DNA of 54,165 bases from a virus, in the IMG/VR virus record IMGVR_UViG_3300045988_087855, one strand, 5' to 3'. The first letter of the stretch is position 1. Each line of letters starts with the position of its first letter. A model generated the notes under the pieces. The model had not been told where the DNA came from, ran no database searches, and saw nothing but the letters and a program-made list of their open reading frames with translations. Position numbers and translations under genes: made by a program. Shown in pieces: positions 2,780-44,714 of this stretch.

Positions 2780-4759
2780 ATGAGAATCATTTTCAACACC
2801 ATCACCATGAAGAACTTCAAGGGAGTTCTCGGTGAGAGAAAGATAGAGTTCAACAACACGCTCACCCAGATCATGGGAGCGAACCACGCAGGCAAGACCA
2901 CAATCGTGGATGCGGTGCAGTGGGTACTCTTCGACAAGAACAGCGAGGGGGCATCGGTATTCGGCATCGACCCGAAGGACGAGAACGGAAACATCATCCA
3001 CAACTTGGATAACAGCGTGACGCTCGAACTGACGGCAGACGGAACCAGCCACACCATCGAGAAGGTCAGAACCGAGACCTGGCAAAAGCCGAAGGGCAAA
3101 GAAGAGAAGGAGCTGACAGGACATACGAACAAGTACTTCATCGACGGCAACAAGCAGACGCAGAAGGATTACAAGAACTTCGTGGATAGTTTGATTAAGG
3201 AGGACTTATTCAAGGTGCTGACGATTCCTTCATACTTCCCGACATTGCCAGCAGACAACCAGCGAAAGCTCCTCACGAAGATGGTCGGCATCACCACGGA
3301 CGAGGACATCGCAGGAGACAACAAGGACTTCACGGAACTCCTCCATGAGATGGGAGGCGAGGACATCGCCAAGTTCAGAGAGCAGCTCCGATACAAGATA
3401 TCCCAGCTCAAGCAAGAGATAGCGGACATACCGAGCCGCATCAACGAGAACACGGAAGAGCTGGAGGCACTCAATGCCAGCAAGCCGAACTTCGACTTGA
3501 CCCGAGAGCGAATCAAGCAAATCGAGATAGGCATCGAGAACATCGACAAGGAGCTGGCTGACCTCAGCAAGACCGTGGACGATGAGTTCAACGAGCGAAC
3601 CAAGGAGCGCACGGAGATAAATAAGCTGAAACAGCAAATGCAATCCATCGCCCAGAGCTACCAAGACAAGAACACCACGCTGGAGCGAGAGCACAAGAAG
3701 AGAATCACCGATGCCCAGTACGCTGTCGATTCCACACAGAGAGCCATCAAGAACGCCAAGACGAACATAGAGAACAGCCAGGCGCAACTCAACAAGATAG
3801 CCATCGACACAAATGACTTCCAAAGACGATGGACAGAGCTCGACCAAACGACCTTCTCATTCGACAACAAGCTGGAGTATTGCCCGACCTGCAAGCAGAG
3901 ACTCCCACAGGAGGACATCGACAAGATGCGTAAGGAGTTGAACGGCAACTTCAACCAGCATAAGAGCGAGCAATTCGACTTACTCGAGCAGGAGGCTGCG
4001 AGAATCAAGAAGCGCAAGGCTGACGCAGAGGCAACCATCAAGACAGACAAGGACAAGCTGACCAAGCTGGAGGAACAACTGAAGAAAGAACAGCAGGAAC
4101 TCCAGCAGGCGAACGAGGCTAAGGTGCAGCTCTCCTACCCAACCGAGAGCGAGGAATACAACCAGCTGCAGGCAGAGGTTCAGACAAGAACAGCGGCACT
4201 CGATGCAAGACAGGAAGCCAACACCACCGACACGCAGGAGAAGCAAGAGGCAACCCTTCGTCAGCGCAAGGCAGAGCAGAACCAGCTGAGAGACAACCTC
4301 AGAGACGAGCTCGCCAAGGAGCAGCAGATAGCCAACAAGCAGAAGCGCATCGCTGACCTCACGGAGAAGCAGAAGACGCTGAACCAGCAACTGACAGACC
4401 TGGAGAAGAAGGACTTCACGGCAGAGCAGTTCACGCTCGCCAAGATTAACGACTTGGAGACGAAGGTCAACCAGCTCTTCACAAACGTGCAGTTCAAGAT
4501 GTTCGAGACCTTCACCACCACCAGCGGAATCAAGCCAACCTGCGAGTGTACCATGCACGGAACCCCATACCGAGACCTATCGGCAAGCGAGAAGATAAAC
4601 GCAGGCATCGACATCATCAACGCCATGTGCCTCTACAACGACACCTACGCACCGATGTTCATCGACAACGCAGAGAGCATCACGGACATCCTGCCGACAC
4701 GCAGCCAGCAGATACTCCTCATCGTTTCGAGAGACAAGGAGCTAACAATAATTCAATAA
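2780..4759 (+). CDS. SbcC/Rad50-like SMC-family ATPase (recombination module)
   Basis: Walker A GANHAGKTT near the N-terminus. Very long K/E/Q-rich coiled coil with a central CPTC hook-like motif. C-terminal PMFIDNAES is a Walker B-like block. Confidence 0.75.
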   Translation: MRIIFNTITMKNFKGVLGERKIEFNNTLTQIMGANHAGKTTIVDAVQWVLFDKNSEGASVFGIDPKDENGNIIHNLDNSVTLELTADGTSHTIEKVRTETWQKPKGKEEKELTGHTNKYFIDGNKQTQKDYKNFVDSLIKEDLFKVLTIPSYFPTLPADNQRKLLTKMVGITTDEDIAGDNKDFTELLHEMGGEDIAKFREQLRYKISQLKQEIADIPSRINENTEELEALNASKPNFDLTRERIKQIEIGIENIDKELADLSKTVDDEFNERTKERTEINKLKQQMQSIAQSYQDKNTTLEREHKKRITDAQYAVDSTQRAIKNAKTNIENSQAQLNKIAIDTNDFQRRWTELDQTTFSFDNKLEYCPTCKQRLPQEDIDKMRKELNGNFNQHKSEQFDLLEQEAARIKKRKADAEATIKTDKDKLTKLEEQLKKEQQELQQANEAKVQLSYPTESEEYNQLQAEVQTRTAALDARQEANTTDTQEKQEATLRQRKAEQNQLRDNLRDELAKEQQIANKQKRIADLTEKQKTLNQQLTDLEKKDFTAEQFTLAKINDLETKVNQLFTNVQFKMFETFTTTSGIKPTCECTMHGTPYRDLSASEKINAGIDIINAMCLYNDTYAPMFIDNAESITDILPTRSQQILLIVSRDKELTIIQ

Positions 4760-4778
4760 TTTTAAACGCAAAGTGATT

Positions 4779-5741
4779 ATGACACAAACATCACAGCAAG
4801 GAGGAACGCAGCAGCCTCAGACGCAGCTGACCTCACAGAACCAGACCGCACTCAAGAGAATGCAGGAAGAGACAACGCAGCAGATACTCGACAAGGTGAA
4901 CTGCTGGCAAGAGACAGGAGAGCTAATTCTGCCAAAGGACTACAAGGTCGGGAACGCAATCAAGCTCGCATGGCTTTACTTGCAGACCGTGGAAGACCGA
5001 AGCCACAGAAAGGCAATCGACGTATGCACCAAGGACAGCATCTGCAACGCCCTGCTCGACATGGTACTCCATGGAGAATACCCGAAGAAACATTGCTACT
5101 TCATCGTTTACGCAGACCGCCTGGAGTGGAACGAGCGATACCTTGGCAAGTACATGAGAGCCAAGCGAGACACCGAGATAGAGGCAGTGTACCCACAAGT
5201 GGTGTACCAGGGCGACGAGTTCGTCTACACTATCGACGAGCTGGGACAATACCAACTTGTGAAACACGTTCCGAACCTCGACAACCTCGATATCACCAAG
5301 ATTAAGGCAGCATACGCCATCGTGGTCAACAAGGACAAGACACGCCACATGGAGATTATGACGCTCGACCAGATCAAGAAGTCATGGATGCAGGGAGCCG
5401 CCAAGGGAACCAGCGGTGCGCACACCAACTTCACCGACCAGATGTGCAAGAAGACCGTCATGGCGAGAGCCTGCAAGATTGCACTCGACAGCCAGGCAGA
5501 CTTCTCTGAAGACGAGGATGACAACCGCAGAGACGAGGCAACCGCAGAACGAGACGCAGCCCAGCAAAGACAGGTAGCCGAGGCGGAAGCCGTGGAGGTT
5601 CACGATGAGGAAGCACCGAAGGGCATCGAGGCGAAGACAAACTACATCGACATGAACGTCAGTAACCAGCCAGAGGCAGAGGCAATACCAGCAGGATCTG
5701 GTGAGCAGCCAGCCGCAAGCGGAAGGGCATGCCCAATCTAA
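4779..5741 (+). CDS. recT: RecT-family single-strand annealing protein
   Basis: RecT-like blocks (YFIVY...LEWNERYLG, TNFTDQMCKKTVMARACK) followed by an acidic C-terminal tail. ATG at 4779 is preferred over GTG at 4773. Confidence 0.7.
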   Translation: MTQTSQQGGTQQPQTQLTSQNQTALKRMQEETTQQILDKVNCWQETGELILPKDYKVGNAIKLAWLYLQTVEDRSHRKAIDVCTKDSICNALLDMVLHGEYPKKHCYFIVYADRLEWNERYLGKYMRAKRDTEIEAVYPQVVYQGDEFVYTIDELGQYQLVKHVPNLDNLDITKIKAAYAIVVNKDKTRHMEIMTLDQIKKSWMQGAAKGTSGAHTNFTDQMCKKTVMARACKIALDSQADFSEDEDDNRRDEATAERDAAQQRQVAEAEAVEVHDEEAPKGIEAKTNYIDMNVSNQPEAEAIPAGSGEQPAASGRACPI

Positions 5742-5760
5742 ATGACAGGAGGGAAGAGCG

Positions 5761-6498
5761 ATGAGAATGACAATCCTCGGAAGCAGCAGCAAGGGAAACT
5801 GCTACGTCTTGCAGAACGACAGCGAGGCAATCATCATAGAGGCAGGCGTGAAGCTCTCGGAGGTCAAGAAGGCACTCGGATGGAACACGGCAAAGGTGAA
5901 GGTTTGCATCATCAGCCACCGCCACAACGACCACGCAGGACACGCAGCCGAATACGAGAAGGCAGGAATACCGCTGCTGGCTCTCCCCTCGGTCATCGAA
6001 GCCAAGGAACTGAGAGCAGTGACAAGCACCCCGATAAAGATGGGCAACGGCTACATCTACGGAGGCTTCAAGATTCTGCCCTTCGAGGTCAAGCACGACG
6101 TGCCATGCGTCGGGTACCTCATAGAGCACCAGGAGACAGGGCGCATCCTGTTCTTCACGGACACCTACGCAATGCCCTACAACTTCCCGAACATCACGCA
6201 CTGGATGGCAGAGGCGAACTACAGCGACGAGATACTCGATGACAACGTGCTCAACGGAAGGGTGCCAGCAGCACTCAGACGAAGGGTGATAACGAGCCAC
6301 ATGAGCATAGACAACGCCATCGGTATCTTGAAGCGACAAGACCTCACGGCAACGAGGGACATCCTGCTGATACACCTCTCGGACGGCAACAGCAACGAGA
6401 AGGAGTTCATCACCAAGGTACGCAGGGCGACAGGAAAGAAAACAAGAGCCGCAGCACCAGGAATGGAGCTGGACTACAACAAGAACATTCAAATTTAA
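5761..6498 (+). CDS. metallo-beta-lactamase-fold hydrolase/nuclease
   Basis: N-terminal MTILGSSSKGNCY and the HxHxDH motif SHRHNDHAGH. Confidence 0.8.
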   Translation: MRMTILGSSSKGNCYVLQNDSEAIIIEAGVKLSEVKKALGWNTAKVKVCIISHRHNDHAGHAAEYEKAGIPLLALPSVIEAKELRAVTSTPIKMGNGYIYGGFKILPFEVKHDVPCVGYLIEHQETGRILFFTDTYAMPYNFPNITHWMAEANYSDEILDDNVLNGRVPAALRRRVITSHMSIDNAIGILKRQDLTATRDILLIHLSDGNSNEKEFITKVRRATGKKTRAAAPGMELDYNKNIQI

Positions 6499-6504
6499 AT
6501 AAAA

Positions 6505-7098
6505 ATGGAAAAGGAACAGATTATCAAAATCGCAGTCCCAGCAGGCAAGAAAGCCGAATGGGTGGATGGCTTTTTGAAACTCGTGGACAACGAGGAAGCC
6601 AAGGAGAAGAAACCAGTCACAGAACGAGTAAAGACCTTCGATGATGCCTGCAAGGAGCTGGGCATCGACGCAGAGGCAATCCAGCAGCAATGGCAGGACG
6701 CAGGAATCACCATGCTGGACGAAGTGGCATACCAGAAGCTCCGCATCATCACCGCAGCACTCAACGAGGGATGGGAGCCAGAGTTCAAGGAGGACGAGTA
6801 CAGATACTACCCTTACTGCATTCTTTACACCAAGGCGGAAATCGAGCAGAAGGATGATGAGTGGAAGGACGAGTACAACCTACAGCTGGGGCTTGGTGGC
6901 GGCTCCTCGTCCTACGGTGCGTCTTGCGGTCTCGCTTCTGCGACCTCGCGCCACGCCTGGTCGCCTGCGTCTGCGCCCCTCTCGGCTCGGCTTGCACACA
7001 AGACAGAAGAGCTGGCAATCTACAGCGGAAAGCAGTTCACGGAGTTATGGGCTAACTACTACACAGGAAAGGAGGTTCAGTCATGGAGAAATTCATAG
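6505..7098 (+). CDS. remote DGR target protein (contains VR2), function unknown
   Basis: 197-aa ORF. Residues LGGGSSSYGASCGLASATSRHAWSPASAPLSARL are encoded by a 112-nt copy of the DGR template repeat in which nearly all differences fall at TR adenines. Confidence 0.8.
   Translation: MEKEQIIKIAVPAGKKAEWVDGFLKLVDNEEAKEKKPVTERVKTFDDACKELGIDAEAIQQQWQDAGITMLDEVAYQKLRIITAALNEGWEPEFKEDEYRYYPYCILYTKAEIEQKDDEWKDEYNLQLGLGGGSSSYGASCGLASATSRHAWSPASAPLSARLAHKTEELAIYSGKQFTELWANYYTGKEVQSWRNS
6882..6993 (+). repeat. DGR variable repeat VR2 (remote)
   Basis: Gap-free hand alignment to TR 42464-42575. There are 22 differences at TR adenines and one non-A mismatch near the 5' end. The 3' end CTCGGCTCGGCTT is identical to VR1. 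Confidence 0.85.
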
Positions 7099-7520
7099 GA
7101 CAGGAATACACCGACCCACAGGAACGTGAGCAGTTTCTGAGAGACAACGCTGACGCAATCGAGAAGATGGGCTACAGCAAACCAATCCCAAGCGACCAAG
7201 TCGAGAAGTTGAAGGAAACCCTTGCGGACGCAAGCATCAAGAAGCTGGAGCTGGAGGAACAGAAGAAGGCGCAGACCCAGATGCTTAACGAGGAAATCAA
7301 AGGATACAAGAATACCATCAAGGAGGTGGCAGACAAGCTCAAGAGCAAGAGCGAGTACGTGAACGAGAACTGCTACAAGATGGTGGACGAGCAGACACGC
7401 CATGTCGGGTATTACAACAGCGACGGACTGCTGGTCTATGACAGAGCCGCACGCCAAGACGAGCTTCAGCCTCGCCTCTTCAAGATGACGGCACAGAAGA
7501 CAGGCACAGATGACAAGTAA
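7083..7520 (+). CDS. hypothetical protein
   Basis: 145-aa ORF that overlaps the upstream gene by 16 nt. Confidence 0.6.
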   Translation: MEKFIGQEYTDPQEREQFLRDNADAIEKMGYSKPIPSDQVEKLKETLADASIKKLELEEQKKAQTQMLNEEIKGYKNTIKEVADKLKSKSEYVNENCYKMVDEQTRHVGYYNSDGLLVYDRAARQDELQPRLFKMTAQKTGTDDK

Positions 7521-7539
7521 CATAAGTTTAACATTCAAA
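7518..7539 (+). repeat. 22-bp junction repeat TAACATAAGTTTAACATTCAAA (copy 2)
   Basis: Exact copy of 2332-2353. Confidence 0.8.
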
Positions 7540-7550
7540 AGAATTTCAAA

Positions 7551-8291
7551 ATGACAAAAGAAGAGAAAACCGCAGCAACCAAGGCTGCAATCGAGAAAAT
7601 CCAGGAGTTGAACGAGAAAAATGGAGGATACTGCATCCGATTCGGAGAAGCCCTCCCACTCAAGGAGCCAAAGGCTGTAAGCATAGACGGAACCATCGAC
7701 GCACCAGCACGCTGGGTGGAGAAGCGCAAGGACGACATCAAACAGGCAGACGCACACATCATCGTGGACAGAGACCACATGAGCATCACGCTGAACATTG
7801 ACGAGAACAGCGCATACAGCGACCAGATCAAGGGAACGCTCACCCTCTCCAGCGAGATGCAGGAGTTTGGAATCAACACAGGTGAGTACATGTCCTGCTT
7901 CGACATGTCAGACCGCATCAAGCAGCTCCGCTCCTACTTCGAGACACAGCAGGAGGCGATGAAGCTGGTCAGCGAACTCCGCAACTTCAAGGCGAAGATA
8001 GACAAGGAGCTGGAACTTAGCGACGACAAGCGAGGCAATCAGCGCATCCTCAAATCGCAGTTCGTGGAGAGTAACCTGCCGAAGGACTTCAAGATTCAAC
8101 TCCCAATCTTCAAGGGCATGAAAAAGGAAACCATCCAGGTAGAGGTTGAAATCAACCCGAACGACCTCTCCTGCACCCTTGTCAGCCCAGAGGCTCACGA
8201 CATCGTGATTCAGCAACGAGACGTGCACATGGACGCAGTCATCGACAGAATCAAGGACGCAGCCCCGACAATCGTAATCATCGAGCAGTAA
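7551..8291 (+). CDS. hypothetical protein
   Basis: 246-aa ORF in the early region. Confidence 0.6.
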   Translation: MTKEEKTAATKAAIEKIQELNEKNGGYCIRFGEALPLKEPKAVSIDGTIDAPARWVEKRKDDIKQADAHIIVDRDHMSITLNIDENSAYSDQIKGTLTLSSEMQEFGINTGEYMSCFDMSDRIKQLRSYFETQQEAMKLVSELRNFKAKIDKELELSDDKRGNQRILKSQFVESNLPKDFKIQLPIFKGMKKETIQVEVEINPNDLSCTLVSPEAHDIVIQQRDVHMDAVIDRIKDAAPTIVIIEQ

Positions 8292-8360
8292 CAACACCAA
8301 CCACCGAAGGAGTCGCCACAGAGCGGCTCCCGAAAGTGATTACCATACAAACAAGAAAGC

Positions 8361-9365
8361 ATGAGCAGGAACGAAAAGATAAGAGCCTTCGTCATTGACG
8401 CACAGGACACCGAGAGAATGCTGGAGGACTTCTCCGATGAAGAGGCTGGAAAGATTCTGAAAGGATTGCTCGCCTACGCAAACAGGGGCGAGGAGTTCGA
8501 GACGGAAGACAGAGCAATGCGCTGCCTGTTCAAGAACATACAAGCGAACATCGACCGCAACTACGACAAGTACGAGGCTAAATGCGAGCGCAACAGACAG
8601 ATAGCCAAGGCAAGGGAACAGAAGAGAAAGGAGGCAAGGGAGAAGAAAGAAGAGCGTGCAGAACGTGAACCAAAAGCACCAAAGAGCACGAACGTACACG
8701 AACGTGAACAAACGTCACCAAAAGCACCAAATGAAAATGAAATAGAAATAACTAATATAAAAGTTATTAAAGAAGCTAAAGCTTCTATTATTAAAGCACC
8801 TAAAGGTGCTACGTCAGAAACAAGTTCTGACGCTGCATCTGCACCAACGCAGGAGGCGAAAAACGAAGCGAGCCAAACCCAAAAGGAAAGCAAGATAGAC
8901 TTCGAGAAGGTGCGCCAGCAGTTCAACCGACTCATGGAGCAGAAGAAGATACCATCGCTCAAGGGCAAGATTGCAGGGCAGCGCAGGGCATTCTTCGAGG
9001 CGAGGGTGCGAGAGTACGGAATCACCGCAGCGTACAGGGTCATGATAAAGGCAGCACGCAGCGGATTTCTCAACGGCAGCGGAGGCAGGGCATGGGTCGC
9101 CAACTTCGAGTGGATATTCAGACCCAACAACTTCCCGAAGGTGCTGGACGGCTACTACGACGAGCAGACACCAACACCAACGGCAATAACACCAGAAGGC
9201 AGATATGGCACACCAATGGCAGAGACCCAAGGCGGTCGGACAGATAATCGAAACCAGCAGCGAGCGCAGGAACAGCGTGAGCGCATCGAAGGCTACGCAG
9301 GCATTGCCAGCAAGTGGAGGCAGACAGCTGATGGAGATGCGACAGCGATGGGATACGAGGGATAG
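8361..9365 (+). CDS. putative replication initiation/organiser protein
   Basis: 334 aa. Two globular halves are joined by a K/E/R-rich linker whose DNA carries iteron-like repeats and an AT-rich tract. The function is assigned from position and architecture only. Confidence 0.45.
   Translation: MSRNEKIRAFVIDAQDTERMLEDFSDEEAGKILKGLLAYANRGEEFETEDRAMRCLFKNIQANIDRNYDKYEAKCERNRQIAKAREQKRKEAREKKEERAEREPKAPKSTNVHEREQTSPKAPNENEIEITNIKVIKEAKASIIKAPKGATSETSSDAASAPTQEAKNEASQTQKESKIDFEKVRQQFNRLMEQKKIPSLKGKIAGQRRAFFEARVREYGITAAYRVMIKAARSGFLNGSGGRAWVANFEWIFRPNNFPKVLDGYYDEQTPTPTAITPEGRYGTPMAETQGGRTDNRNQQRAQEQRERIEGYAGIASKWRQTADGDATAMGYEG
8661..8730 (+). repeat. iteron-like repeats (GAACGTRMAC x4; CAAAAGCACCAAA x2)
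   Basis: GAACGTGAAC at 8661, GAACGTACAC at 8690, GAACGTGAAC at 8700, AAACGTCACC at 8710. CAAAAGCACCAAA at 8671 and 8718. Confidence 0.55.
8731..8800 (+). other. AT-rich tract next to the iteron-like repeats (candidate DNA unwinding element / ori)
   Basis: ATGAAAATGAAATAGAAATAACTAATATAAAAGTTATTAAAGAAGCTAAAGCTTCTATTATTAAAG is strikingly AT-rich compared with the rest of the gene. Confidence 0.45.
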
Positions 9366-18400: not shown

Positions 18401-19855
18401 ATGATGAACGACACCGAACTGCAAAAGATGTGGGTGTTGCAGAATCCCCTCAACTTCACCAGGTACTTCTTCAAGGAGAACGGAGGAAAGCGGTTCATTG
18501 TCGGGCATCACCACAAGACCGTCTGCGACGCACTCGACAGGGTGCTCAAGGGCGAAATCAACAAGCTCATCATTAACATCGCCCCACGCTACGGAAAGAC
18601 GGAGCTGGCGGTGAAGAACTTCATAGCGATGGGACTCGCCATCAACCCAGCCTCCAACTTCATACACCTGTCCTACTCCAGCGACCTCGCTGTGGACAAC
18701 TCCATAGCGATAAAGGACATCGTGAACTGCGAGGCATACCAGCGCATGTTTGAGACCAGGGTGAAATACGGAAACGACACCAAGGCACAATGGGACACGG
18801 AGCAAGGCGGTGGAGTTTACGCAACCTCCACGCTCGGACAGATTACAGGTTTCGGAGCAGGAGAGGTGGACAGAGTGGACGAGCAGGGCAATCCGCTCCC
18901 CTACAGATTCGCAGGAGCCATCATCATCGACGACCCGATAAAGCCAGAGGACGCACTGAGCGACGTGGTGCGTGAGCGAGTGAACCGACGATTCGAGACA
19001 ACCATTCGAAACCGAGTGAACAGCCGCAACACGCCAATCATCATCATCATGCAAAGACTGCACGAGCACGACCTATGCGGCTACCTGCAAGAGATTGAGC
19101 CTGACGATTGGACAGTGGTCAGCCTTCCGTGCATCACCACGGACGAGGAAGGAAACCGAATGCCACTATGGGCGTTCAAGCACACGCTGCAGGAATTGGA
19201 GAAGATACGCCTCGCCAACTCCTTTGTCTTCGAGACGCAGTACATGCAGAACCCGACACCTATCGAGGGTTTGATGTACTCCCACTTCAAGACATACGAC
19301 ACCCTCCCGATAGAGGCGCACCTGCCAAGGCGCAAGTGCTACATCGACACAGCAGACACAGGAGCCGACTGGCTCTGCGCCATTTGCTACGACGAGTACG
19401 AGAGCGGATGCTACGTCACCGACATCCTATTCACCAACAAGAGCATGGAGTTCACGGAGCCAGCCGTGGCGAGGATGCTGGTGAGGAACCAAACCGAGGA
19501 GGTCGTGGTAGAGAGCAACAACGGAGGTCGAGGGTTCAGAAGGAACGTGGAGAAGCTCGTCCGCACCCTTGGAAATTGGATAATGGTCTTCATTGACCTC
19601 GCCCAGACCGCCAACAAGCAGACACGAATCTTCATCAACAGCTCGAAGGTGATGAACATGGTCTTCTTCCCAGCAGGATGGGAGTTATTGTTCCCACATT
19701 ACCACAACGCAATGACATCCTACCGCAAGGAGGGAGGAAACGAGCACGACGATGCGCCCGACTGCACGACAGGCGTGGTGGAGCGTTTCGGATTGATTAC
19801 CTGCGCCCAGATCACCGACGAGGAAGAGGAAGAAATCGAGGATGAGATTTATTAA
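18401..19855 (+). CDS. terL: terminase large subunit
   Basis: Walker A-like IAPRYGKTE, Walker B AIIIDDPIKPEDA, and IIMQRLHEHDL. Size and position are typical. Confidence 0.85.
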   Translation: MMNDTELQKMWVLQNPLNFTRYFFKENGGKRFIVGHHHKTVCDALDRVLKGEINKLIINIAPRYGKTELAVKNFIAMGLAINPASNFIHLSYSSDLAVDNSIAIKDIVNCEAYQRMFETRVKYGNDTKAQWDTEQGGGVYATSTLGQITGFGAGEVDRVDEQGNPLPYRFAGAIIIDDPIKPEDALSDVVRERVNRRFETTIRNRVNSRNTPIIIIMQRLHEHDLCGYLQEIEPDDWTVVSLPCITTDEEGNRMPLWAFKHTLQELEKIRLANSFVFETQYMQNPTPIEGLMYSHFKTYDTLPIEAHLPRRKCYIDTADTGADWLCAICYDEYESGCYVTDILFTNKSMEFTEPAVARMLVRNQTEEVVVESNNGGRGFRRNVEKLVRTLGNWIMVFIDLAQTANKQTRIFINSSKVMNMVFFPAGWELLFPHYHNAMTSYRKEGGNEHDDAPDCTTGVVERFGLITCAQITDEEEEEIEDEIY

Positions 19856-21316: not shown

Positions 21317-24043
21317 ATGCCAACAAGAATCACCATTGCAACATACGACGAGAAGCACAAGCAGAACCTCGCCAAGAGAGCCAAGAAGGTGAGCAGCCTA
21401 TACGACGCAGCCGTGAAGCGATTGACGCAAGCGGCTGCGCCATCCCTTTTTGACGCAGACAAAGAGCAAGAGTTCCACTTCGAGGACTTCCCAACCTTAA
21501 AGAGGGAAATGGACGCACTCATGCAAGACCTATACTCCAGCCTACAGACGAACATCGAGGATGGAGACGAGGAAAGCTGGACGCTCGCCAACACCAAGAA
21601 CGACGCAATGGTGGAATCGGTCATCGGCAAGGCGAAGCTCCCAAAGCAGACCGTACATGCGTGGAAGCACCCACACTTGGAGGCACTCAACGCCTTCATA
21701 GACCGCAAGGAGGCAGGGATGGGGCTCAGCAAGAGGGTATGGAACCTCACCCAGCAGTTCAAGGATGAAATGGAACTCGCCCTCGAACTCGGAATGGGCG
21801 AAGGGAAGAGCGCAGCAGAACTGAGTCGCGATATCCGCAAATACCTAAAGGAACCGAACAAGTTATTCAGAAGGGTGCGAGACAAGAGCGGAGCCTTGCG
21901 CCTCTCCAAGGCTGCTGCCGCATATCACCCAGGGCGTGGCGTTTACCGCTCCAGCTACAAGAACGCCCTCCGAATGACAGCGACCGAGAACAACATGGCA
22001 TACAGGACAGCCGACCACACCAGATGGCAGGCTCTCCCTTTTGTTATCGGTATCGAAATCCATATCAGCAACAACCACCCGACAGAGGACATCTGCGACC
22101 TATTCGACGGAAAACGCTTTCCAAAGGACTTCAAGTTCACAGGATGGCATCCATGGTGCAGATGTTATGCAGTTTCCATCCTCGCCAAGCAGGAGGAAAT
22201 GGACGCATACATCAAGGCTCTCATTGCTGGCGAAGACGTGAGCGATTGGCAATTCACTGGCAAGGTCGAGCAGATGCCAACCGAGTTCACCAAGTGGATG
22301 AAGGACAACGAGAGCAGAATAACCAAAGCCAAGTCCATGCCCTACTTCATCAAGGACAACTTCAAGGACGGAGACCCAGCCAAGGGGCTGCGATGGGAAG
22401 GCAAAAATAAACAATCCGCACAATGGGAACCTTCGTTCATGAATGAAGAACAATATACAGAACTGACGAGAACTATGAAGATTACTCCTGAGCAACATCA
22501 CGAGTTATATGATGGAGATGATGTGTACATCGACAGTTCATGGTCACGTCAGATTAACAAAGAGCTGGCAAGCGAAAAAGTTAGAGGTGATATACCAGAT
22601 AATTTCATGGATGGAGACACGGGAACAATACGTCAATGTAAAGTTCTTGATGCAGTAATCAAGGCAAATACGCTAAAGGAAGATACATACGTTTATAGAA
22701 AAGTTACCGAGGATTGGTTAAAGAGAGATGGGGTCTCGTTCACAGAAGGCAATGTTATACATGAATTCGGATACACGTCAACAAGCGCAGTCGAAGGAAA
22801 TACCTATATGAGCAGGAAAACCGTAAGAATGAATATTAAAATTCCTAAAGGAACACATGCGTACGTCTCGGAGAATATAAACGAAAGCGAGATAATCCTT
22901 GGTAGAAATTCAAAATTCTTAGTAAAATCGGTAAAACACGAAGGTAAAAATACGATCATAGACCTTGAGCTACAGCCACAAATCGTCAAATCTGTCAAAA
23001 CGAAGCACGAGGTTATAATGGAGAATGCAGCCAAGCGACATGCAGCGAGAACCAGCGAACAGATAGATGATATCAAGGACGCATGGAGAGAAAGAAGACT
23101 CGATGCATACGACAACCGATGCGACCAATTGATGAAGACACTCACATATAGCCAGGGACAGACACTCCCAGCATTGACGAAGAGACAGATAGCCCTGCGC
23201 AACGCCATAGGCAAGGACGCATCCGTGAATGAGGTCGAGGCTTTGTTTGCTAAATTCGAGAAGGGCGTGAAAGCACAGAACAAATGGGACACCCAGGTAT
23301 GGGGCAGCTTCAGCAAGGAGCAAATCGCGAACATGAAGGACATCGAAAAGAGCCTCGGAATCAAGAAGGGAAGACCGATGACCTACGAGGAAGCTGACAA
23401 ACAGAGCGCAAACCCATTGCATGTGAACGAATACATTGTGGACAAAAACTCAAAATGGGTATTGTCTGGGACAAAGATTCATGTAAGCAAAAACCCATTA
23501 TACGACAAAGCCAAGCACGAGCCATACGATATAAACTGCCAAACTTGTGCTCCAGCCTACGCTCTGAGAGAATGGGGCTTCAATATTCATGCAAAAGGCA
23601 ATACACAGAAAATCGGAGACTTGTCTTATTACTTAAGCCATGGCGATAATTGGCTGGAGACATGGACTGAGAAAGACGGCTCGCCTGTAAGCATAACCAG
23701 TTTTAAAGACTTCCAAAGAGCACATCCAGGCTGGAAGCACATGACGCAACAAAGATACCTCCAATACTTCGACGAAGTTTGCAAAGAGGAAGGCACATAC
23801 GAAGTCGGTCTTAGCTGGGAACCAAGAGGTGGACATTGCACAATCGTTAAACGATTCAACGATGGAAGCCTTAAGTACATAGAGCCGCAGGAAGACAACT
23901 CCGACGGAAGCGGATTTGAGGAAAAGGACATTAAATACCTTTGCGAAAAAATGAGGAAAGACCCAATTTTGAAAGATGGAGCGATAAAGGTCAGCGACAA
24001 ATTGCTTAATTTAAAATACGTTTCAATTTTCCTTAAACGCTGA
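21317..24043 (+). CDS. MuF/SPP1-gp7-family head morphogenesis protein with C-terminal ADP-ribosyltransferase and papain-like (Cys/His) domains
   Basis: MuF block ...YRTADHTRWQ...GWHPWCRCYAV. ART R-STS-ExE triad: YVYRKV (R codon 22697), GYTSTS (22775-22786), NESEIIL (22883-22891). The C-terminus has NCQTCAPAYALREWGF and RGGHCTIV. Confidence 0.8.
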   Translation: MPTRITIATYDEKHKQNLAKRAKKVSSLYDAAVKRLTQAAAPSLFDADKEQEFHFEDFPTLKREMDALMQDLYSSLQTNIEDGDEESWTLANTKNDAMVESVIGKAKLPKQTVHAWKHPHLEALNAFIDRKEAGMGLSKRVWNLTQQFKDEMELALELGMGEGKSAAELSRDIRKYLKEPNKLFRRVRDKSGALRLSKAAAAYHPGRGVYRSSYKNALRMTATENNMAYRTADHTRWQALPFVIGIEIHISNNHPTEDICDLFDGKRFPKDFKFTGWHPWCRCYAVSILAKQEEMDAYIKALIAGEDVSDWQFTGKVEQMPTEFTKWMKDNESRITKAKSMPYFIKDNFKDGDPAKGLRWEGKNKQSAQWEPSFMNEEQYTELTRTMKITPEQHHELYDGDDVYIDSSWSRQINKELASEKVRGDIPDNFMDGDTGTIRQCKVLDAVIKANTLKEDTYVYRKVTEDWLKRDGVSFTEGNVIHEFGYTSTSAVEGNTYMSRKTVRMNIKIPKGTHAYVSENINESEIILGRNSKFLVKSVKHEGKNTIIDLELQPQIVKSVKTKHEVIMENAAKRHAARTSEQIDDIKDAWRERRLDAYDNRCDQLMKTLTYSQGQTLPALTKRQIALRNAIGKDASVNEVEALFAKFEKGVKAQNKWDTQVWGSFSKEQIANMKDIEKSLGIKKGRPMTYEEADKQSANPLHVNEYIVDKNSKWVLSGTKIHVSKNPLYDKAKHEPYDINCQTCAPAYALREWGFNIHAKGNTQKIGDLSYYLSHGDNWLETWTEKDGSPVSITSFKDFQRAHPGWKHMTQQRYLQYFDEVCKEEGTYEVGLSWEPRGGHCTIVKRFNDGSLKYIEPQEDNSDGSGFEEKDIKYLCEKMRKDPILKDGAIKVSDKLLNLKYVSIFLKR

Positions 24044-29905: not shown

Positions 29906-32900
29906 ATGGCAGATTTCGACAACGGAAGAGAAGGATTCTCGATAGGCATAGACGATTCACAATTGCAGAGCGACGCTGAGAAGGTCGTCCAGCAATTCCA
30001 ATCCATCGGCAGGATTGCCACCGAGATAGGACAGAAAATAGACTCTGCATTCGGCAGCGTCAGCACGGAGAGCCTACGGCACGAGACGGAGGAAGCGACC
30101 GACAAAATCAAGGAGATGGGAGACACCACCAAATCCGAGACCGAGAAGATGGACGCAAGCCTCAAGAAGATAGCCGCAGGCGTTACTGCGTACTTTTCCA
30201 TTCAGAAGTTAGCCGAGTTCGAGAGCAAGGTCATCAGCATCAGAAGCGAGATGGAGAGCCTGCACGTTTCCTTCAAGAACCTCGCAGGCGAGCAGATGGG
30301 AAACGAGCTATTCGAGCAACTGAAGGAATACGAGCTGCGCACCCCGATGATTATGAACGACCTCGCACAGGGAGCGCAGACAATGCTCGCCTTCAACATA
30401 CCAGTGCAGGAGGTCATGGAGCACTTGAAGGCAATCGGTGATATCTCCATGGGCGACAGCGAGAAGTTCAAGAGCCTCACCCTCGCCTTCTCCCAGATGA
30501 GCGCAACAGGCAAGCTGATGGGACAGGACTTGCTGCAGATGATTAACGCAGGATTCAACCCATTGCAGGTTATCAGCGAGAAGACAGGCAAGAGCATCGG
30601 TGAGCTGAAGGACGAGATGTCCAAGGGAGCCATCAGCACCAAGATGGTGCAGGATGCGTTCCACGCAGCCGCCAGCGAGGGAGGTCAGTTCAACGGAATG
30701 CTGGAGCAGCAGAGCAAGACAATGAAGGGTGCGCTCTCCAACCTGGAGGGAGCATGGCAGTACATGCTCAACGACATAGGCGAGGCACAGGAAGGCTTCA
30801 TCGTTGACAGCATCGACGCAGCGCAGAAGCTCATCGCCAACTACAAGCAGGTGGGACAAATCATCATGGGCTTAATCACCACCTACGGAACATACAGGGC
30901 TGCGGTCATGGTGGCGACCGTGGCAGAGAAAGGACACAGCATCACAATGATTGCAGCAAGGGCGCAAATCCTGCTCACGCAGAAGGCACAAGCCTTGCTC
31001 AACGCAACGATGCTATCCAACCCATACGTGGCAGCAGCCACGGCACTCGGAGTGCTCATCGGAACATTGGTAGCCTGCCAGGACGGACTGACCGCTGACG
31101 AGAGAGCACAGAAATCATTCAACGAAGAAATCGAGGCAGGCAAGCAGAAACAGGAGGAATACAACCAGGAAACAGAAACCGCCATAGAGAACGCCCAAAA
31201 GGACGGAACCGCCACAAATGACAGACGCAAGGCACTGAACCTCCTCATACAGCGATACCCTGCCATCATAAGAAAATACATTGACGAAGAGGGACACCTA
31301 AAAAACATCGTCAAGCTAAAGCGAGAAATCGCAGAGATAGATGGACAGAAAACAATAAATGGCTACAACCAGCAAGCGTCGCTCAACGAGCGATATGCAG
31401 CCATACTGCAAATGGCACAAAGGAGACAACTCCAAAACATAGGCAGCACGAAGAATCCATTCACAGAGCAAGAAAGAAAACAAATCGATGAAGCCAAGGA
31501 ATACTACTACAAGCAGAACGGATGGACGAGCCGAATAACAGCGAGTCTATCCGACATGATAGGCTTCTACCAGGGCAAGGGACGCAGCTACCGCCAACAG
31601 GCTGGGAAGACTGCCACCACCCAACAAGCCAATAAGCTCGCAGAGGGATTCAAGAATCTAAACAACACCCAGCTCAACAACCTCATCAAACAGCTGGAGA
31701 AAGGCAAGGCAACAGGCAAGAACGTCACGTTCAAAATGAAGGGATTCGGAAACTACGCCTACAGCCAAAGCGACATATTGAGCATGCTCACAACCGCCCA
31801 GGGTATCAAGACAGCCAGGGGCAAGAGCAAGAAGACATACAACGCCAGCGACTGGGACAAACAAGCCAAGGACGCACAGGCGAAACTCGACGAAATGGGA
31901 GATGACAAGAAGGGAACCAAGGAGTGGAAGGCGCAAGAAGACCTAATCAAAGAAGCGCAGGAACACAAGGCATCCCGACAAGTCTCCACCCACCAACAGA
32001 GAACATCAGCCGCCAAGAAGCAACAAACCGAAGCCGAGAAAGCCGCCAAGGAGCAAGCCAAGGCAGACGAGAAGAAGGCAGAGGAAAACTACAAGTACGA
32101 GCAGCAGAGCACCCAGCAGAAGACCGACAACGAGCTACTGCAGGCACAAGCCATCGTGGATGCGATGAAGGAAGGCGAGGCTAAGAAACTCGCCCAGCTC
32201 GACATCAACTACAAGAAGGAGCAGGATGCGCTCGACAAGGAAGAGAAGGCATTGCTCCAAGCCAAGATAGACCATGCAAAGACCTTGTGGGAGGCAGACC
32301 CGAAGAACGAGAAACGAGGGTTCTATGCCACAGGGCAGCAGAAGAACATAAAGCTGACAGACGAGGAAAAGGCTGGAATCACAGCCAAGCGCACCTCGCT
32401 CGACAGCAACACCGCACAACAGAGGGACGACCTGATCAAGGCATTGCTCGAGAAATACGATGACGAGAACGAGAAAGCAGAGAAGACCCGAAAGGCAATC
32501 ACGGACGATATCGCCCAGCTGACAAAACTGAGGGACGAAGCAGCCAAGCTCGGAGACAAAGACCTCGTCCAGCGTTACGAACACAAGCGAGAGCAGGCAA
32601 CGAAAGCCCTCGAAGAGAACATACAAAGCGTTTACCTTGAGGAACTGAAGAAGTCCATCGATTGGGACTCGGTCTTCAACAACCTCGACAAGCAGACAAC
32701 GCAGCAGCTAAAGGACACCCGAAACAAGCTCCTCGCCTACAAGGGAAGCACAGAATACAAGAACGCCACCCCAGAGAACAAGAAGGTCGTGGAGACCGCC
32801 ATAGGGCAGCTCAATGACGCAATCATCAAGGGAAGCGGCATATTCGGCAACCTCGCAGAGAACTGCAAGGCATACGAGGAAGCGAGCCAAAGATACACCG

Positions 32901-34471
32901 ATGCCTTGAAAGAACTGAACATCGCACTCTCCGAGTTCAGCGACATCGAGGACAGCGATGCATCCGACGAAGCCAAGGAGAAGGCTAAGAAGCGAGTGGA
33001 TGAAGCTCAGAAGAAGGCTGACGATGCCAAGAAGGACAAGGACACCACCAAGGTGAACCGAGACAAGTCTATCAACACGACAACAAACAATATCATAAGC
33101 CTCTCCAACGCAATAACCCTGCTCGGAAGCACCAGCGAGATGAGCCTTTCAGAACTTGGCAGTGTCGCAAGCAATGTCGCAAACGTATTCGGAGAAGCTG
33201 GCTCGAAGATAGGAGGCATCATCGGTGCCATTCTTTCATTGCTTGATGCGATACAGAAGCAGGGACTCTTCAAGTTCATCGGCAACATTTTCTCCTCTGT
33301 TTTCGGAGCGGTCGGTGGAATTTTCCGAAGCCTCACAGGAAGCAAGCTATTCGGTACCGACACCAGCGTTGAAGACACGATAAACGACCTCACCCAATCC
33401 AACAAGGATCTGGAGTCTGCGGTGGACAGGCTGACCGAGATAATGAAGGACAAGGCAGGACAGGAAGCAACCGACACCTACCAAAGGGCGAAGAAGAACC
33501 TGGAGGATGCAGAGTCCAACAAGCAACAGATTCTGAAAGCGGCAGCAGGAGCATACAGCAACGGATTTGCAGGCATCGGTGGACATCACTCCGCCAACAA
33601 GAAAATCAACGACTCCATGAGCGCATCCGATTGGGCGAGGATTAGCCAAATCACAGGAGTGACCGTCCGAGGTGCTGGTGACTTTTGGAACCTTACCAGC
33701 GAGCAGATGGCGAAGGTGGCTGACGAGGCGACCGACCTCTGGTCTAAAATCAAGAACGCAGGAGGATACAAGAACGTGTCCAGCGACATGGACGAGTACA
33801 TCGAGTACTACAAGAAGCTCATCGACTTGCAGAACGACTACAATGAGGCGGTCACGAACCTATCGTTCGACAGCGCAAAGGATGGATTGAAGGAACTGCT
33901 GAAGGACACCACCAAGGGCTTAAAGGACGCAACCAAGCAGGTAAAGGAGTACATGGAGGAAGCAATCCTCAACTACATAACCAAGACGGCACTCGCCCAG
34001 GACATGCAGGACTGGTACAAGCAATTCGCTGACGCAATGGCTGACGGCACACTCGACCAAACCGAGAAGAACGCCTTGCAGAAAAAATACGAGGAAACCT
34101 ACCGCAAGGGAGAGCAGCAGAGGGACAACATGTACGCAGCGGCTGGAATCGACCCATCGGAAGACTACAACCAAAGCAGCACCAGCGCAAGCCTCAGTGG
34201 AATGACGCAAGACCAGGGCGAGGAAATGAACGGAAGGCTCACCAGCATACAGGTTGGAGTTACCACCATTTCGGAAGCCATCCAGCAGCAGGCGATGAAC
34301 AACGCAAGCATCGCACTGAGCGCATCGGCAATCAGAACCAACATGGACGACATGATGGAGATGCAGGTGCAGGCGGTCGGACACTTGGAGAAGATAGAGC
34401 GATACACCAGCGAGCTGCCTGCGATGAACCAAAAGCTTGAAAAGATAAGAAAGAACACCGAACACCTTTAA
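29906..34471 (+). CDS. tape measure protein
   Basis: 1521 aa with coiled-coil-rich and hydrophobic central segments, in the canonical position. Confidence 0.9.
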   Translation: MADFDNGREGFSIGIDDSQLQSDAEKVVQQFQSIGRIATEIGQKIDSAFGSVSTESLRHETEEATDKIKEMGDTTKSETEKMDASLKKIAAGVTAYFSIQKLAEFESKVISIRSEMESLHVSFKNLAGEQMGNELFEQLKEYELRTPMIMNDLAQGAQTMLAFNIPVQEVMEHLKAIGDISMGDSEKFKSLTLAFSQMSATGKLMGQDLLQMINAGFNPLQVISEKTGKSIGELKDEMSKGAISTKMVQDAFHAAASEGGQFNGMLEQQSKTMKGALSNLEGAWQYMLNDIGEAQEGFIVDSIDAAQKLIANYKQVGQIIMGLITTYGTYRAAVMVATVAEKGHSITMIAARAQILLTQKAQALLNATMLSNPYVAAATALGVLIGTLVACQDGLTADERAQKSFNEEIEAGKQKQEEYNQETETAIENAQKDGTATNDRRKALNLLIQRYPAIIRKYIDEEGHLKNIVKLKREIAEIDGQKTINGYNQQASLNERYAAILQMAQRRQLQNIGSTKNPFTEQERKQIDEAKEYYYKQNGWTSRITASLSDMIGFYQGKGRSYRQQAGKTATTQQANKLAEGFKNLNNTQLNNLIKQLEKGKATGKNVTFKMKGFGNYAYSQSDILSMLTTAQGIKTARGKSKKTYNASDWDKQAKDAQAKLDEMGDDKKGTKEWKAQEDLIKEAQEHKASRQVSTHQQRTSAAKKQQTEAEKAAKEQAKADEKKAEENYKYEQQSTQQKTDNELLQAQAIVDAMKEGEAKKLAQLDINYKKEQDALDKEEKALLQAKIDHAKTLWEADPKNEKRGFYATGQQKNIKLTDEEKAGITAKRTSLDSNTAQQRDDLIKALLEKYDDENEKAEKTRKAITDDIAQLTKLRDEAAKLGDKDLVQRYEHKREQATKALEENIQSVYLEELKKSIDWDSVFNNLDKQTTQQLKDTRNKLLAYKGSTEYKNATPENKKVVETAIGQLNDAIIKGSGIFGNLAENCKAYEEASQRYTDALKELNIALSEFSDIEDSDASDEAKEKAKKRVDEAQKKADDAKKDKDTTKVNRDKSINTTTNNIISLSNAITLLGSTSEMSLSELGSVASNVANVFGEAGSKIGGIIGAILSLLDAIQKQGLFKFIGNIFSSVFGAVGGIFRSLTGSKLFGTDTSVEDTINDLTQSNKDLESAVDRLTEIMKDKAGQEATDTYQRAKKNLEDAESNKQQILKAAAGAYSNGFAGIGGHHSANKKINDSMSASDWARISQITGVTVRGAGDFWNLTSEQMAKVADEATDLWSKIKNAGGYKNVSSDMDEYIEYYKKLIDLQNDYNEAVTNLSFDSAKDGLKELLKDTTKGLKDATKQVKEYMEEAILNYITKTALAQDMQDWYKQFADAMADGTLDQTEKNALQKKYEETYRKGEQQRDNMYAAAGIDPSEDYNQSSTSASLSGMTQDQGEEMNGRLTSIQVGVTTISEAIQQQAMNNASIALSASAIRTNMDDMMEMQVQAVGHLEKIERYTSELPAMNQKLEKIRKNTEHL

Positions 34472-40939: not shown

Positions 40940-42310
40940 ATGAGTTATCAAAAAATTACACAGGCGACAATCGCCACGACACTGAGCAATTCAGATTACA
41001 TCTTCGTGATGGCAGGGGGAACGCTTAAGCGCATCACACTCGACAACCTCAGAGCCATGATGGAGGAGAACCAGCAGCAGTTCCTGGACGAGAACGCATT
41101 CTACATCGAGGAGAACACCGCAGCAAGCAAGGGCTCTGCATACTGCGAGACAGGAGGCAGCAGCCTCATGCGACAGATTTGGCTCTCGAAGATTTGCGCC
41201 ATATTGATGACGCAGGACGGACACTTCACGAAACTCAACCCAGCCGACCACCGATACACTGCGGACGGAGACCAAGTGGTGAAGAACGGAGCCGTGGTGG
41301 ACGCATACAAGAACGCAGACTGGTTCGGAATGCTTGAAGGCGGTTATTGGAACTACCTGCAAGAGGTAACCATCAGCGGAGTGAAGCATATCCGACACCA
41401 CATATCGCTCACGCCACTGCCAGGTGGCTGGTTTACGCAGAACATACCAGCAGGCATGTTCAAATGCGTGATTCAGAACGGACAGATGCGAAGCATACCA
41501 TTTGTGGTACCAAGCGGAGGCAGCAACATCAACCAATTCTTCAACTACGCACAAGCACGAAGCAAGAACCATGGACTTGCAGGCGAGCCATTCCGCAACT
41601 TCCTCCTTCAGTACATGATGGGCAAGTACGGATACAGAGACATTCAAAACTTGGCGGCATCCGATGGTACAAAGATTTTCGGCTGCGGTTTGGACGGAAC
41701 AGAGAAGAGCGCATCTTCAACATTGGGTGACGGATTCGCAAGACAGAGAAACATCAAGACAGGAGCCTGCCTCGCTCTTGGATACAGCGACGGAAAGGTG
41801 GTGGTCAAGGACGCAGACAACTACGCCTGCCACAGCGTGAACGTGGGAGTATGGGAAAACCCATATGGGCAATATTGGGAAATGGACGGACACCTATGCA
41901 GCGTAGGTACCGACGTTTACCAATGGGACGGCAACTTCTTGCCTACAGGAACACCGACAGCGGACAGCTTTGCTGCGGTCAAGCACACCAAGATGACAAG
42001 ACTCGCAGCCGAAGGTTCAAGCGATGCCGACATCACCCTTATCACCACCAAGGGAGCGCAGCACATGAGCTACGTGCCTACCAAGCAGCATACAGGCATC
42101 ACCTACGGAGACCACTACTGGTACAATGCAAGTGGACAGCTGTGGTTTGGTGGCGGCTACTCGTCCTACGGTGCGATTTGCGGTCTCGCTTCTGCGTACT
42201 CGAGCAGCGCCTGGTCGTGTGCGTTTGCGTACGTCTCGGCTCGGCTTGATTTTCATGGTGACCTCACGGAAGTGACATCAGCCGAACTGAAAAGACTCCT
42301 TGCAAGTTAA
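40940..42310 (+). CDS. DGR target protein: tail receptor-binding protein with C-terminal variable region (VR1)
   Basis: 456 aa. C-terminal ...GQLWFGGGYSSYGAICGLASAYSSSAWSCAFAYVSARLDF is encoded by VR1. The gene lies in the tail fibre block immediately upstream of the TR and RT. Confidence 0.85.
   Translation: MSYQKITQATIATTLSNSDYIFVMAGGTLKRITLDNLRAMMEENQQQFLDENAFYIEENTAASKGSAYCETGGSSLMRQIWLSKICAILMTQDGHFTKLNPADHRYTADGDQVVKNGAVVDAYKNADWFGMLEGGYWNYLQEVTISGVKHIRHHISLTPLPGGWFTQNIPAGMFKCVIQNGQMRSIPFVVPSGGSNINQFFNYAQARSKNHGLAGEPFRNFLLQYMMGKYGYRDIQNLAASDGTKIFGCGLDGTEKSASSTLGDGFARQRNIKTGACLALGYSDGKVVVKDADNYACHSVNVGVWENPYGQYWEMDGHLCSVGTDVYQWDGNFLPTGTPTADSFAAVKHTKMTRLAAEGSSDADITLITTKGAQHMSYVPTKQHTGITYGDHYWYNASGQLWFGGGYSSYGAICGLASAYSSSAWSCAFAYVSARLDFHGDLTEVTSAELKRLLAS
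42134..42247 (+). repeat. DGR variable repeat VR1
   Basis: 114-nt gap-free alignment to TR 42462-42575. All 18 differences fall at TR adenines. Confidence 0.9.
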
Positions 42311-42461
42311 GACAAGGAACAAAACGAGAGAACAAACAAAAAAAAACAAACAAGAAAAGGTAACTTCAAAGGGGACGTGGGGGATTTCCCCCACCCGCCA
42401 ATGATGCCCCAGAATAAAGAAACCCCTCGCCCAAGCTCGTGGCGAGGTAGGCAAAGGAAAA

Positions 42462-42575
42462 GGACAGCTGTGGATTGGTGGCGGCAACTCGAACAACGGT
42501 GCGAATTGCGGTCTCGCTTATGCGAACTCGAACAACGCCTGGTCGAATGCGAATGCGAACATCTCGGCTCGAATT
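42462..42575 (+). repeat. DGR template repeat (TR)
   Basis: A non-coding copy of VR1 and VR2 rich in AAC/AAT codons (reads GGGNSNNGANCGLAYANSNNAWSNANANISARI in the VR frame). It lies 277 nt upstream of the RT gene. Confidence 0.9.
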
Positions 42576-42852
42576 ACTTCTACGTTTTCGGAGACGGAAA
42601 CGAAAAACAAATAAGGACATGAGTACTGCGTCATGGGAAAGTGTCCGCCTTTTCTGAGCCTCGGCAGCTGGTGCATAAGTACAGCCAGTGATGAGCCGAA
42701 ACAAATCGAACTTGCGCAGGCAACGCCCAGCGACCTGCCCGTGGTGTTAGTAAATCCGAACCGAGGATGGTCGGAAGTTGAAAGCTCTGCACAGAGAGAA
42801 GCAAGCCCAACGAGAACAGATACGAGCAACAACTTGATAAAGACGAAAGACA
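42576..42852 (+). ncRNA. DGR spacer region between TR and RT (probable structured part of the DGR RNA)
   Basis: No convincing CDS. Several local inverted repeats: CGTTTTC-GGAGAC-GGAAACG at 42583-42602, GGACATGA...TCATG...TGTCC at about 42606-42637, and CCGA...TCGG at about 42756-42774. Confidence 0.4.
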
Positions 42853-44276: not shown

Positions 44277-44714
44277 ATGAAACAGCAGTACGGAAACATC
44301 AGAAGAACGTTCATGGAGCAGAAGCCAGAGGTGTACGACCGAAAGACACGCATCGCCTACATGGACTTCACAGCGGACACCCAGGAGAAGACCGACAACG
44401 CCAGCCAGGACACCGACAAGGCTAAGGGCAAGGAAGAGAAGACCACCATCGAGGGATTCAGCGGCTTTGTCATTCAGACCGACGGCATCATGGACTACGC
44501 CCACATCAAGAGCCAGCTCGTGGAGGCGGCATACCCACAGAAGGAAGAGCACGCCCTGGCATTCAATACCATCGACGCATTGCTGAAGAAGGTGGACGGA
44601 GTGGAACTGACCGAGGAAGAGAGCCAAGACCTCGCCAACTACAAGGACTTCTCGGAATACCGAGCATTGTGCGCCAACTGCGCCCACGCCATCATCGACA
44701 ACTTATTCACTTAA
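44277..44714 (+). CDS. hypothetical protein
   Basis: 145-aa acidic ORF between the RT and the tail fibre gene. Confidence 0.55.
   Translation: MKQQYGNIRRTFMEQKPEVYDRKTRIAYMDFTADTQEKTDNASQDTDKAKGKEEKTTIEGFSGFVIQTDGIMDYAHIKSQLVEAAYPQKEEHALAFNTIDALLKKVDGVELTEEESQDLANYKDFSEYRALCANCAHAIIDNLFT

Follow-up and report, generated by a model that had tools for sequence, protein, structure and literature searches.

Organization of the prophage

The window, by which we mean the whole 54,165-nt stretch of DNA analysed here (IMGVR_UViG_3300045988_087855), is a complete prophage with a perfect direct repeat of 45 nt at its two ends (1-45 being identical to 54121-54165). These repeats are probably the attL and attR sites, and a tyrosine integrase is encoded near the right end on the minus strand (52743-53993). 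When read on the minus strand, the repeat (GGGGGATTCGAACCCCC...) resembles the 3′ part of a class-II tRNA; no complete tRNA was found in the window by ARAGORN. The phage is of a temperate, siphovirus-like type, with indications of a Prevotella/Bacteroides-type host. Scanning the contig collection with the small protein described below returned only two fragments of Prevotella MAGs, at 46% identity, and the assignment of the host to Prevotellaceae/Bacteroidaceae is thus indicative. Megablast of positions 5700-8300 against the INPHARED phage collection gave no matches, so that this phage lineage is absent from INPHARED.

The early genes, all on the plus strand, start with an SbcC-like ATPase (2780-4759), RecT (4773-5741), and an MBL-fold hydrolase (5761-6498). 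Directly downstream lies the gene of a small protein of 197 residues (6505-7098), followed by two genes of unknown function, belonging to phrog_12688 (7083-7520) and phrog_11501 (7551-8291), by a DnaD/O-like replication initiator (8361-9365), and then by methyltransferases and a resolvase. The gene of the small protein starts 6 nt past the stop codon of the hydrolase and shares its last 16 nt with the next gene, which places it in the early operon. The first-pass annotation had put this gene outside the tail module, between the recombination and the replication genes, and the gene annotation bears this out. The hydrolase itself might serve in anti-defence by degrading cyclic nucleotides, rather than act as a nuclease in recombination, given that its counterparts in related loci have a faint precomputed Pfam match to Anti-Pycsar Apyc1 (PF23023).

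The late genes are arranged in the order terminase (18401-19855), portal, head, tape measure (29906-34471), tail, the primary DGR target, the template repeat (TR), the reverse transcriptase (RT), and a fibre-like protein of 958 residues (44730-47606). The latter contains collagen-like G-x-y repeats (GADGKDGDPGKDG...), encoded at 44784-44840 and 45207-45263. A head-morphogenesis or minor-head protein of 908 residues (21317-24043) has PHROG matches to a Bxa-type ADP-ribosyltransferase and to an ADP-ribosyltransferase exoenzyme toxin, which suggests that it may carry a virion-delivered toxin domain.

The DGR cassette

All elements of the cassette are located on the plus strand. The primary target is a tail-module protein of 456 residues (40940-42310, phrog_5302 'tail protein', E=1e-12), encoded after the tape-measure and tail genes, with the cassette-proximal variable repeat VR1 (42136-42247) close to its C terminus. 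The TR (42464-42575) comprises 112 nt, 27 of them adenines, mostly in AAC and AAT codons. All 18 mismatches between VR1 and the TR are found at TR adenines (P = 1.7e-14). The TR is separated from the RT by a spacer (42576-42852), presumed from its position to form the remainder of the DGR RNA, which contains only short open reading frames (such as one of 82 residues at 42633-42881) with no matches in Pfam or NCBIfam. The RT itself (470 residues, 42853-44265) matches PF00078 (E=7e-10) and phrog_1423 (E=5e-51). The motifs [I/L]GxxxSQ and YxDD are diagnostic of DGR RTs, and the translation has both of them, as PLGIRPSQ (motif 4) and as the catalytic box YLDD.

Searches in Pfam, PHROGs, and NCBIfam revealed no Avd-like gene among the open reading frames next to the RT (42377-42622, 42633-42881, and 44277-44714), and a divergent accessory protein is possible; Avd is missing from some of the surveyed DGRs. 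Similarly, the flanks 3′ of the variable repeats have no hairpin of the BPP-1 type (DNA-fold z-scores of +0.19 for VR1 and -0.27 for VR2, with no inverted repeats after the IMH), a feature of BPP-1 that is not universal among DGRs. Two perfect short hairpins are present between the stop codon of the VR1 gene and the TR, at 42377-42394 and 42425-42447 (GTGGGGGA-TT-TCCCCCAC and CCTCGCC-N9-GGCGAGG), and these could be a terminator of the tail gene or a 5′ structure of the DGR RNA.

The remote variable repeat VR2 and its 3′ end

The second variable repeat, VR2 (6882-6993, plus strand), encodes residues 126-163 of the small protein. Scripted alignment reproduced exactly the gap-free match of 112 nt to the TR (42464-42575) that had been made by hand. 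There are 23 mismatches, of which 22 fall on TR adenines (15 A>C, 5 A>T, and 2 A>G), the only other one being T>G at 6889, also as first reported; the substitutions are thus confined to TR adenines save for this position, and not spread over the four bases. The probability that at least 22 of 23 mismatches would be at adenines, given 27 adenines in 112 nt, is 1.5e-17 (hypergeometric) or 4.5e-13 (binomial). A scan of both strands, in which any change was tolerated at TR adenines and up to 12% mismatch elsewhere, detected only three TR-like copies in the window (the TR, VR1, and VR2), and repeat finding gave the same three-member family. The linear distance from the TR to VR2 is 35,582 nt, with a shorter path of ~18.5 kb in the excised circular form.

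The T>G change at 6889 replaces a framework tryptophan by glycine (W129G) and might impair the small protein encoded in the window. Trp129 is kept in 111 of 120 relatives, which are the best 120 of 2,313 homologous proteins and are 92-96% identical to the query. Codon 129 (TGG) encodes glycine in the window and in contig L009, and Cys, Gly, or Leu in nine of the 120 relatives, a recurrent non-A change near the 5′ edge of the repeat.

The 3′ ends of both variable repeats read CTCGGCTCGGCTT(G), whereas that of the TR reads CTCGGCTCGAATT(A). The region concerned in VR2 (6981-6994, plus strand) is CTCGGCTCGGCTTG, identical to the end of VR1, compared to CTCGGCTCGAATTA in the TR, so that GGCTTG in the repeats corresponds to AATTA in the TR. 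At the protein level, Leu163 and Ala164 are invariant among the 120 variant proteins; the change in the codon of Arg162, from CGA to CGG, is synonymous, and the fixation of that difference therefore rests on the DNA data. GGCTT is present in 16 of 16 VR2 alleles at the DNA level, and the GC form in 10 of 11 VR1 alleles; in the remaining VR1, that of contig L096, one of the two positions has kept the base of the TR. Ordinary adenine mutagenesis as the source of the GC-versus-AA difference is ruled out by its invariance in all VR2 and in 10 of 11 VR1 alleles. Being fixed across alleles, the difference resembles an IMH/IMH* distinction, and not the outcome of mutagenesis. The proposal that VR2 carries the same putative homing end as VR1, different from that of the TR, is thereby upheld by the alignment; by analogy with characterised systems, this end would be an IMH-like targeting element, its role in homing being presumed.

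The small protein that hosts VR2

The translation of 6505-7098 (plus strand) gives a protein of 197 residues, with 34 codons following VR2, in agreement with the initial description. Its mass is 22 kDa and it is acidic (pI 4.85); hydropathy analysis detected neither a signal peptide nor a membrane or hydrophobic segment. Searches with the single protein in Pfam, NCBIfam, PADLOC, and PDB sequences, as well as searches with a family alignment of 102 members against Pfam and the PDB, were not informative. Residues 28-189 match phrog_11581 (E=4e-41), a large phage family with no characterised member. When 1.84 billion cluster representatives were searched exhaustively with HMMER, 1,408 clusters (50% identity) reached E<=1e-3 and 573 reached E<=1e-10, the majority being proteins of 160-250 residues. 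Longer members (~240-360 residues) have N-terminal extensions to which neither Pfam nor PHROG families could be assigned, so that domain fusions give no clue to the function. The family consensus is ITERIKTFEDAC.ELG ... AYLKLRII.AALNEGW.P.F...E.RYYPWF.LYT.EE ... [VR] ... GSRLA.KS.ELA.Y.GKQF..IWAD, where the length of the VR segment is constant and small conserved residues alternate with positions where S, Y, N, D, and A are frequent.

Two AlphaFold2 models, of the protein from the window and of a member of the BT-TP2 type, have mean pLDDT of 82.7 and 77.6, respectively. Both are characterised by a confidently predicted N-terminal β-hairpin and helices, forming a mainly helical scaffold, with pLDDT below 50 in the VR. 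In Foldseek searches with these models, in which the VR is thus poorly placed, there were no PDB matches with E<1, and the matches in BFVD were limited to uncharacterised phage proteins. In hhalign comparisons of the family with the C-terminal domains of three tail targets, only the 38 TR-templated residues can be aligned (probability 96.7%), and neither of the two DGR targets matches any lectin family in Pfam. Thus, as far as can be judged from the models, in which the VR itself is poorly defined, no lectin signal appears to be detectable in the scaffold beyond the templated segment.

Variation of VR2 in the natural population

The best 120 of the 2,313 relatives all differ from one another. 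Among these 120 proteins, column entropy is 1.9-3.5 bits at 13 A-templated codons, compared to at most 0.5 bits elsewhere; the 13 codons are those of the TR that contain a mutable adenine (AAC, AAT, ATT, TAT, and ATC). At the DNA level, in six alleles from near-identical phages, 23 of 27 adenine sites vary versus three of 85 non-adenine sites, and the remaining 482 nt of the gene, outside VR2, contain 0-2 changes. The 45-nt core of the TR is present in 13 IMG/VR contigs, with the full TR identical in 11 of them. VR1 is represented by 11 distinct alleles in 11 genomes, VR2 is distinct in seven of seven related contigs, and the VR1 and VR2 alleles of the same contig differ from each other at most adenine sites. 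A natural marker is provided by contig L097 (IMGVR_UViG_3300045988_184351), where a point variant of the TR (G17A) is found also in its own VR1, as transfer from the TR to a variable repeat predicts. Certain VR2 alleles recur unchanged in three assemblies, and the turnover of VR2 is therefore not continuous. Three Logan contigs from three different runs (L009, L010, and L011), each of exactly 1,260 bp, have identical boundaries around the small gene and different VR2 alleles; these boundaries may result from graph breakage caused by heterogeneity of strains or of the VR.

VR2 has been rewritten repeatedly in the natural population, independently of VR1, and is a live target, not a fossil, because the variation among near-identical genes is confined to A-templated sites while the TR is constant. 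The comparison across assemblies thus substantiates the earlier proposal of an active target, variable at the A-templated sites and essentially nowhere else in the gene. The opposite outcome named at that time, an invariant VR2 next to a varying VR1, is not what the assembled contigs reveal, since both repeats differ among genomes, and the alleles within a genome agree with the independent diversification that had been expected.

Homologues of the small protein in other phages

In a tblastn search of phage records, Bacteroides phage BT-TP2 yielded a homologue with 50% identity, and phages of the LoVEphage type yielded others with 30-35% identity over ~78% of the length. In BT-TP2 (PQ571279), the TR of the phage itself (40632-40749) is matched both by the variable repeat of the large tail protein gp44 and by the VR2 of the small homologue (121-238 of the record). 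The gene, encoding 183 residues, is not annotated in record PQ571279.1, where it extends across the 141-nt terminal repeat (44862-45224 joined to 1-~430) as a second DGR target; the BT-TP2 publication reports only gp44 as a target (PMC12694917). BT-TP2 differs from the window in that its small gene lies right after the integrase/regulator region, ~4.5 kb from the TR, and in that the TR sequence and the VR framework are of another type.

The LoVEphage protein (MW660583, QVQ57199.1, 33613-34197) is also a member of phrog_11581, and its variable repeat matches, with mismatches only at adenines, that phage's own TR near 49385-49505, which adjoins the RT and a tail-collar-fibre gene. The VR framework LWGG..G..CGLA.A.S..AWS...A..SRLA is common to LoVEphage and the window. 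The small gene of LoVEphage is on the strand opposite to the structural genes, outside the structural module, with cytosine and adenine methyltransferases and RtcB encoded within 7 kb. LoVEphage/Quimbyvirus represents a different phage lineage, as there was no LoVEphage record among the RT matches with E<=1e-20. The neighbourhoods also differ (SbcC, RecT, MBL hydrolase, and replication initiator in the window, methyltransferases and tRNA ligase in Quimbyvirus/LoVEphage), and the RT is a single open reading frame in the window, whereas it is frameshifted in Quimbyvirus/LoVEphage. In turn, the tail targets of the window, BT-TP2 (gp44), and LoVEphage (tail collar fibre) are homologous over their last ~200 residues, with the C-terminal 220 residues aligning in the case of the window.

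Among 80 IMG/VR loci with members of the family, each of the eight that have an RT within +/-10 kb also carries an A-biased TR copy matching the VR of the small gene. The other 72 have no RT within that distance, as expected for remote targets. In these loci, homologues of phrog_12688 and phrog_11501 often come after the small gene, or the MBL hydrolase and RecT before it. A sister lineage in IMG/VR (L022-L025) preserves the order SbcC, RecT, MBL, small gene, phrog_12688, with 55-57% identity of the small protein and a VR that is completely different in its nucleotides; a different TR is implied, and the TR and both variable repeats must have been swapped together. These repeat matches show that phrog_11581 supplies the second DGR target in at least three divergent phage lineages, in each case with a VR that corresponds to the TR of the same phage.

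Discussion

A remote second target as such is a known phenomenon, and the novelty that the first-pass annotation implied for it was overstated. Benler et al. 2021 (Microbiome 9:78, PMC8008677) described the DGR of Quimbyvirus, a related gut phage, as having two targets, one structural and the second non-structural, and assigned a C-type lectin domain to the latter. From its matching gene neighbourhood, this second target appears to be the LoVEphage homologue QVQ57199.1 (ORF 80/84), and Dahlman et al. 2025 (Nature 647:698, PMC12629997) cite the Benler paper for LoVEphage. The LoVEphage paper mentions only an RT next to the tail fibre. The C-type lectin domain was not reproduced here for the phrog_11581 scaffold as a whole, the VR having pLDDT <50 in both models. 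Dahlman et al. also report distal second variable repeats in four inducible gut prophage species; as in the window, these are temperate Bacteroidota phages with a DGR tail target and a second variable repeat far from the RT cassette, near non-structural or counter-defence genes (PMC12629997). In that text the second targets are assigned to no protein family, and their likeness to the window is one of arrangement.

Other systems resemble the one described here in part. The DGR of Bordetella phage BPP-1, which diversifies Mtd, resembles it in the use of a TR and an error-prone RT, in the restriction of mutagenesis to adenines, and in a 3′ element, rich in GC, that is present in the VR and altered in the TR. 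It differs in that the tail fibre is its single target and adjoins the cassette, in that it has an Avd gene, and in that a cruciform follows the IMH, neither Avd nor a hairpin having been found in the window. The Bacuni phages of Bacteroides uniformis (PMC8143477) are similar in combining one TR with a proximal and a distant VR. In those phages, however, both targets are adhesins that resemble fimbrial tips and contain the VR within their final 35 residues, and neither is a small protein of an early operon. Three points appear not to have been stated in the relevant papers, namely that the second targets form one large conserved family, that the pairing of a tail target with a small target recurs across divergent phages with different TRs, and that the scaffold is without a lectin signal outside the templated segment.

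In the mechanism that we propose, the RNA containing the TR would be reverse-transcribed with misincorporation opposite adenines, and the mutagenised cDNA would replace the homologous variable repeat. By analogy with the IMH and IMH* of BPP-1, targeting would be achieved via the GC-rich 3′ end that is common to both variable repeats and missing from the TR, with VR2, at a distance of 35.6 kb (18.5 kb once the phage is circular), rewritten in trans. The 38 templated residues, in which conserved small residues alternate with hypervariable ones, would lie between confidently predicted helical segments and provide the diversifiable binding surface of a soluble, intracellular, non-virion protein made early in infection, with a possible role in conflict between phage and host or between phages. 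We consider this explanation as a whole (one DGR with two targets, VR1 in the tail and a live VR2 in the early operon, the latter in a soluble intracellular binder) to be very probably correct. The small protein is most likely such a non-virion binder, because of the missing export signal and the context of its gene in the early operon; a function in conflict is about as likely as not. A conflict-related intracellular binder is nevertheless the functional hypothesis that the gene context and the missing export signals support best. The suggestion in the first-pass annotation, a diversified binding protein that acts in the cell, is likewise in keeping with the missing signal peptide and membrane segments.

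Several other explanations need to be weighed against this one. The small protein might instead be associated with the virion or the tail, as an accessory receptor-binding or decoration protein that is encoded outside the structural module by chance and in which VR2 serves changes of host range like VR1. Such a role would account for a binding segment templated by the same TR as that of the tail protein, and for the pairing of a tail target with a small target kept in three phage lineages. It is at odds with the consistent location of the gene on the early side, among recombination and replication genes, in many lineages, with the position of the LoVEphage gene on the strand opposite to the structural genes, and with profile homology to the tail targets that is limited to the 38 templated residues; we therefore regard it as rather unlikely. 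Distinctly less probable is a VR2 that serves no selected function and is merely tolerated as an off-target of retrohoming, a TR-like segment with its IMH having landed by chance in a dispensable early gene. In favour of this, AlphaFold places the VR without confidence, but an accidental target would not be expected in a family of ~1,400 clusters (50% identity) with strongly conserved flanking motifs, with the frame and the framework residues of the VR maintained, and with phages that have different TR sequences each targeting this same family.

The two remaining explanations concern the origin of the variation, and to both of them we give very little credence. Were VR2 an inactive fossil, an old variable repeat duplicated or transferred and no longer rewritten, the hundreds of distinct alleles of otherwise near-identical genes, different only at A-templated sites, would be difficult to explain, as would the intact IMH-like 3′ end identical to that of VR1; the non-A mismatch at the conserved tryptophan in the copy from the window and the recurrence of a few alleles in different assemblies are the observations that would fit such a state. 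Because RecT and an SbcC-like protein are encoded right beside the VR2 gene, the variation might instead be traced to recombination or gene conversion, either with VR1 or among phage strains, and not to independent mutagenic retrohoming. Yet the VR1 and VR2 alleles of one contig are different at most adenine sites, each genome has unique alleles, and the changes avoid non-A positions, unlike what recombination would do. Rewriting of VR2 by the DGR itself, as proposed above, remains by far the preferred explanation.

We can speculate further that phrog_11581 represents a hitherto unrecognised DGR scaffold that is not a C-type lectin, a soluble, mainly helical, cytoplasmic binder comparable to an antibody, whose segment of 38 residues was taken from the receptor-binding domain of a tail protein and which is obligatorily paired with the tail target via the shared TR in many lineages of gut phages. 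In this extended form the proposal is rather unlikely. If it were true, such a binder could be, for example, an adaptable inhibitor of variable proteins of host defence or of superinfecting phages.

Phage DGRs are usually read as host-range devices on tail fibres. To this picture the window adds a second target that belongs to a very large sequence family, and a pairing of targets seen repeatedly in unrelated lineages whose TRs differ. The members of the family are compact (~180-200 residues), which would make it convenient for identifying what a non-structural DGR target binds. The class of remote targets has probably been under-counted, since Roux et al. 2021 state that the approach of their large survey of DGRs cannot reveal targets of this kind. 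A second target that is conserved, diversified, expressed from an early position, and apparently intracellular implies that gut phages use targeted hypermutation inside the cell too.
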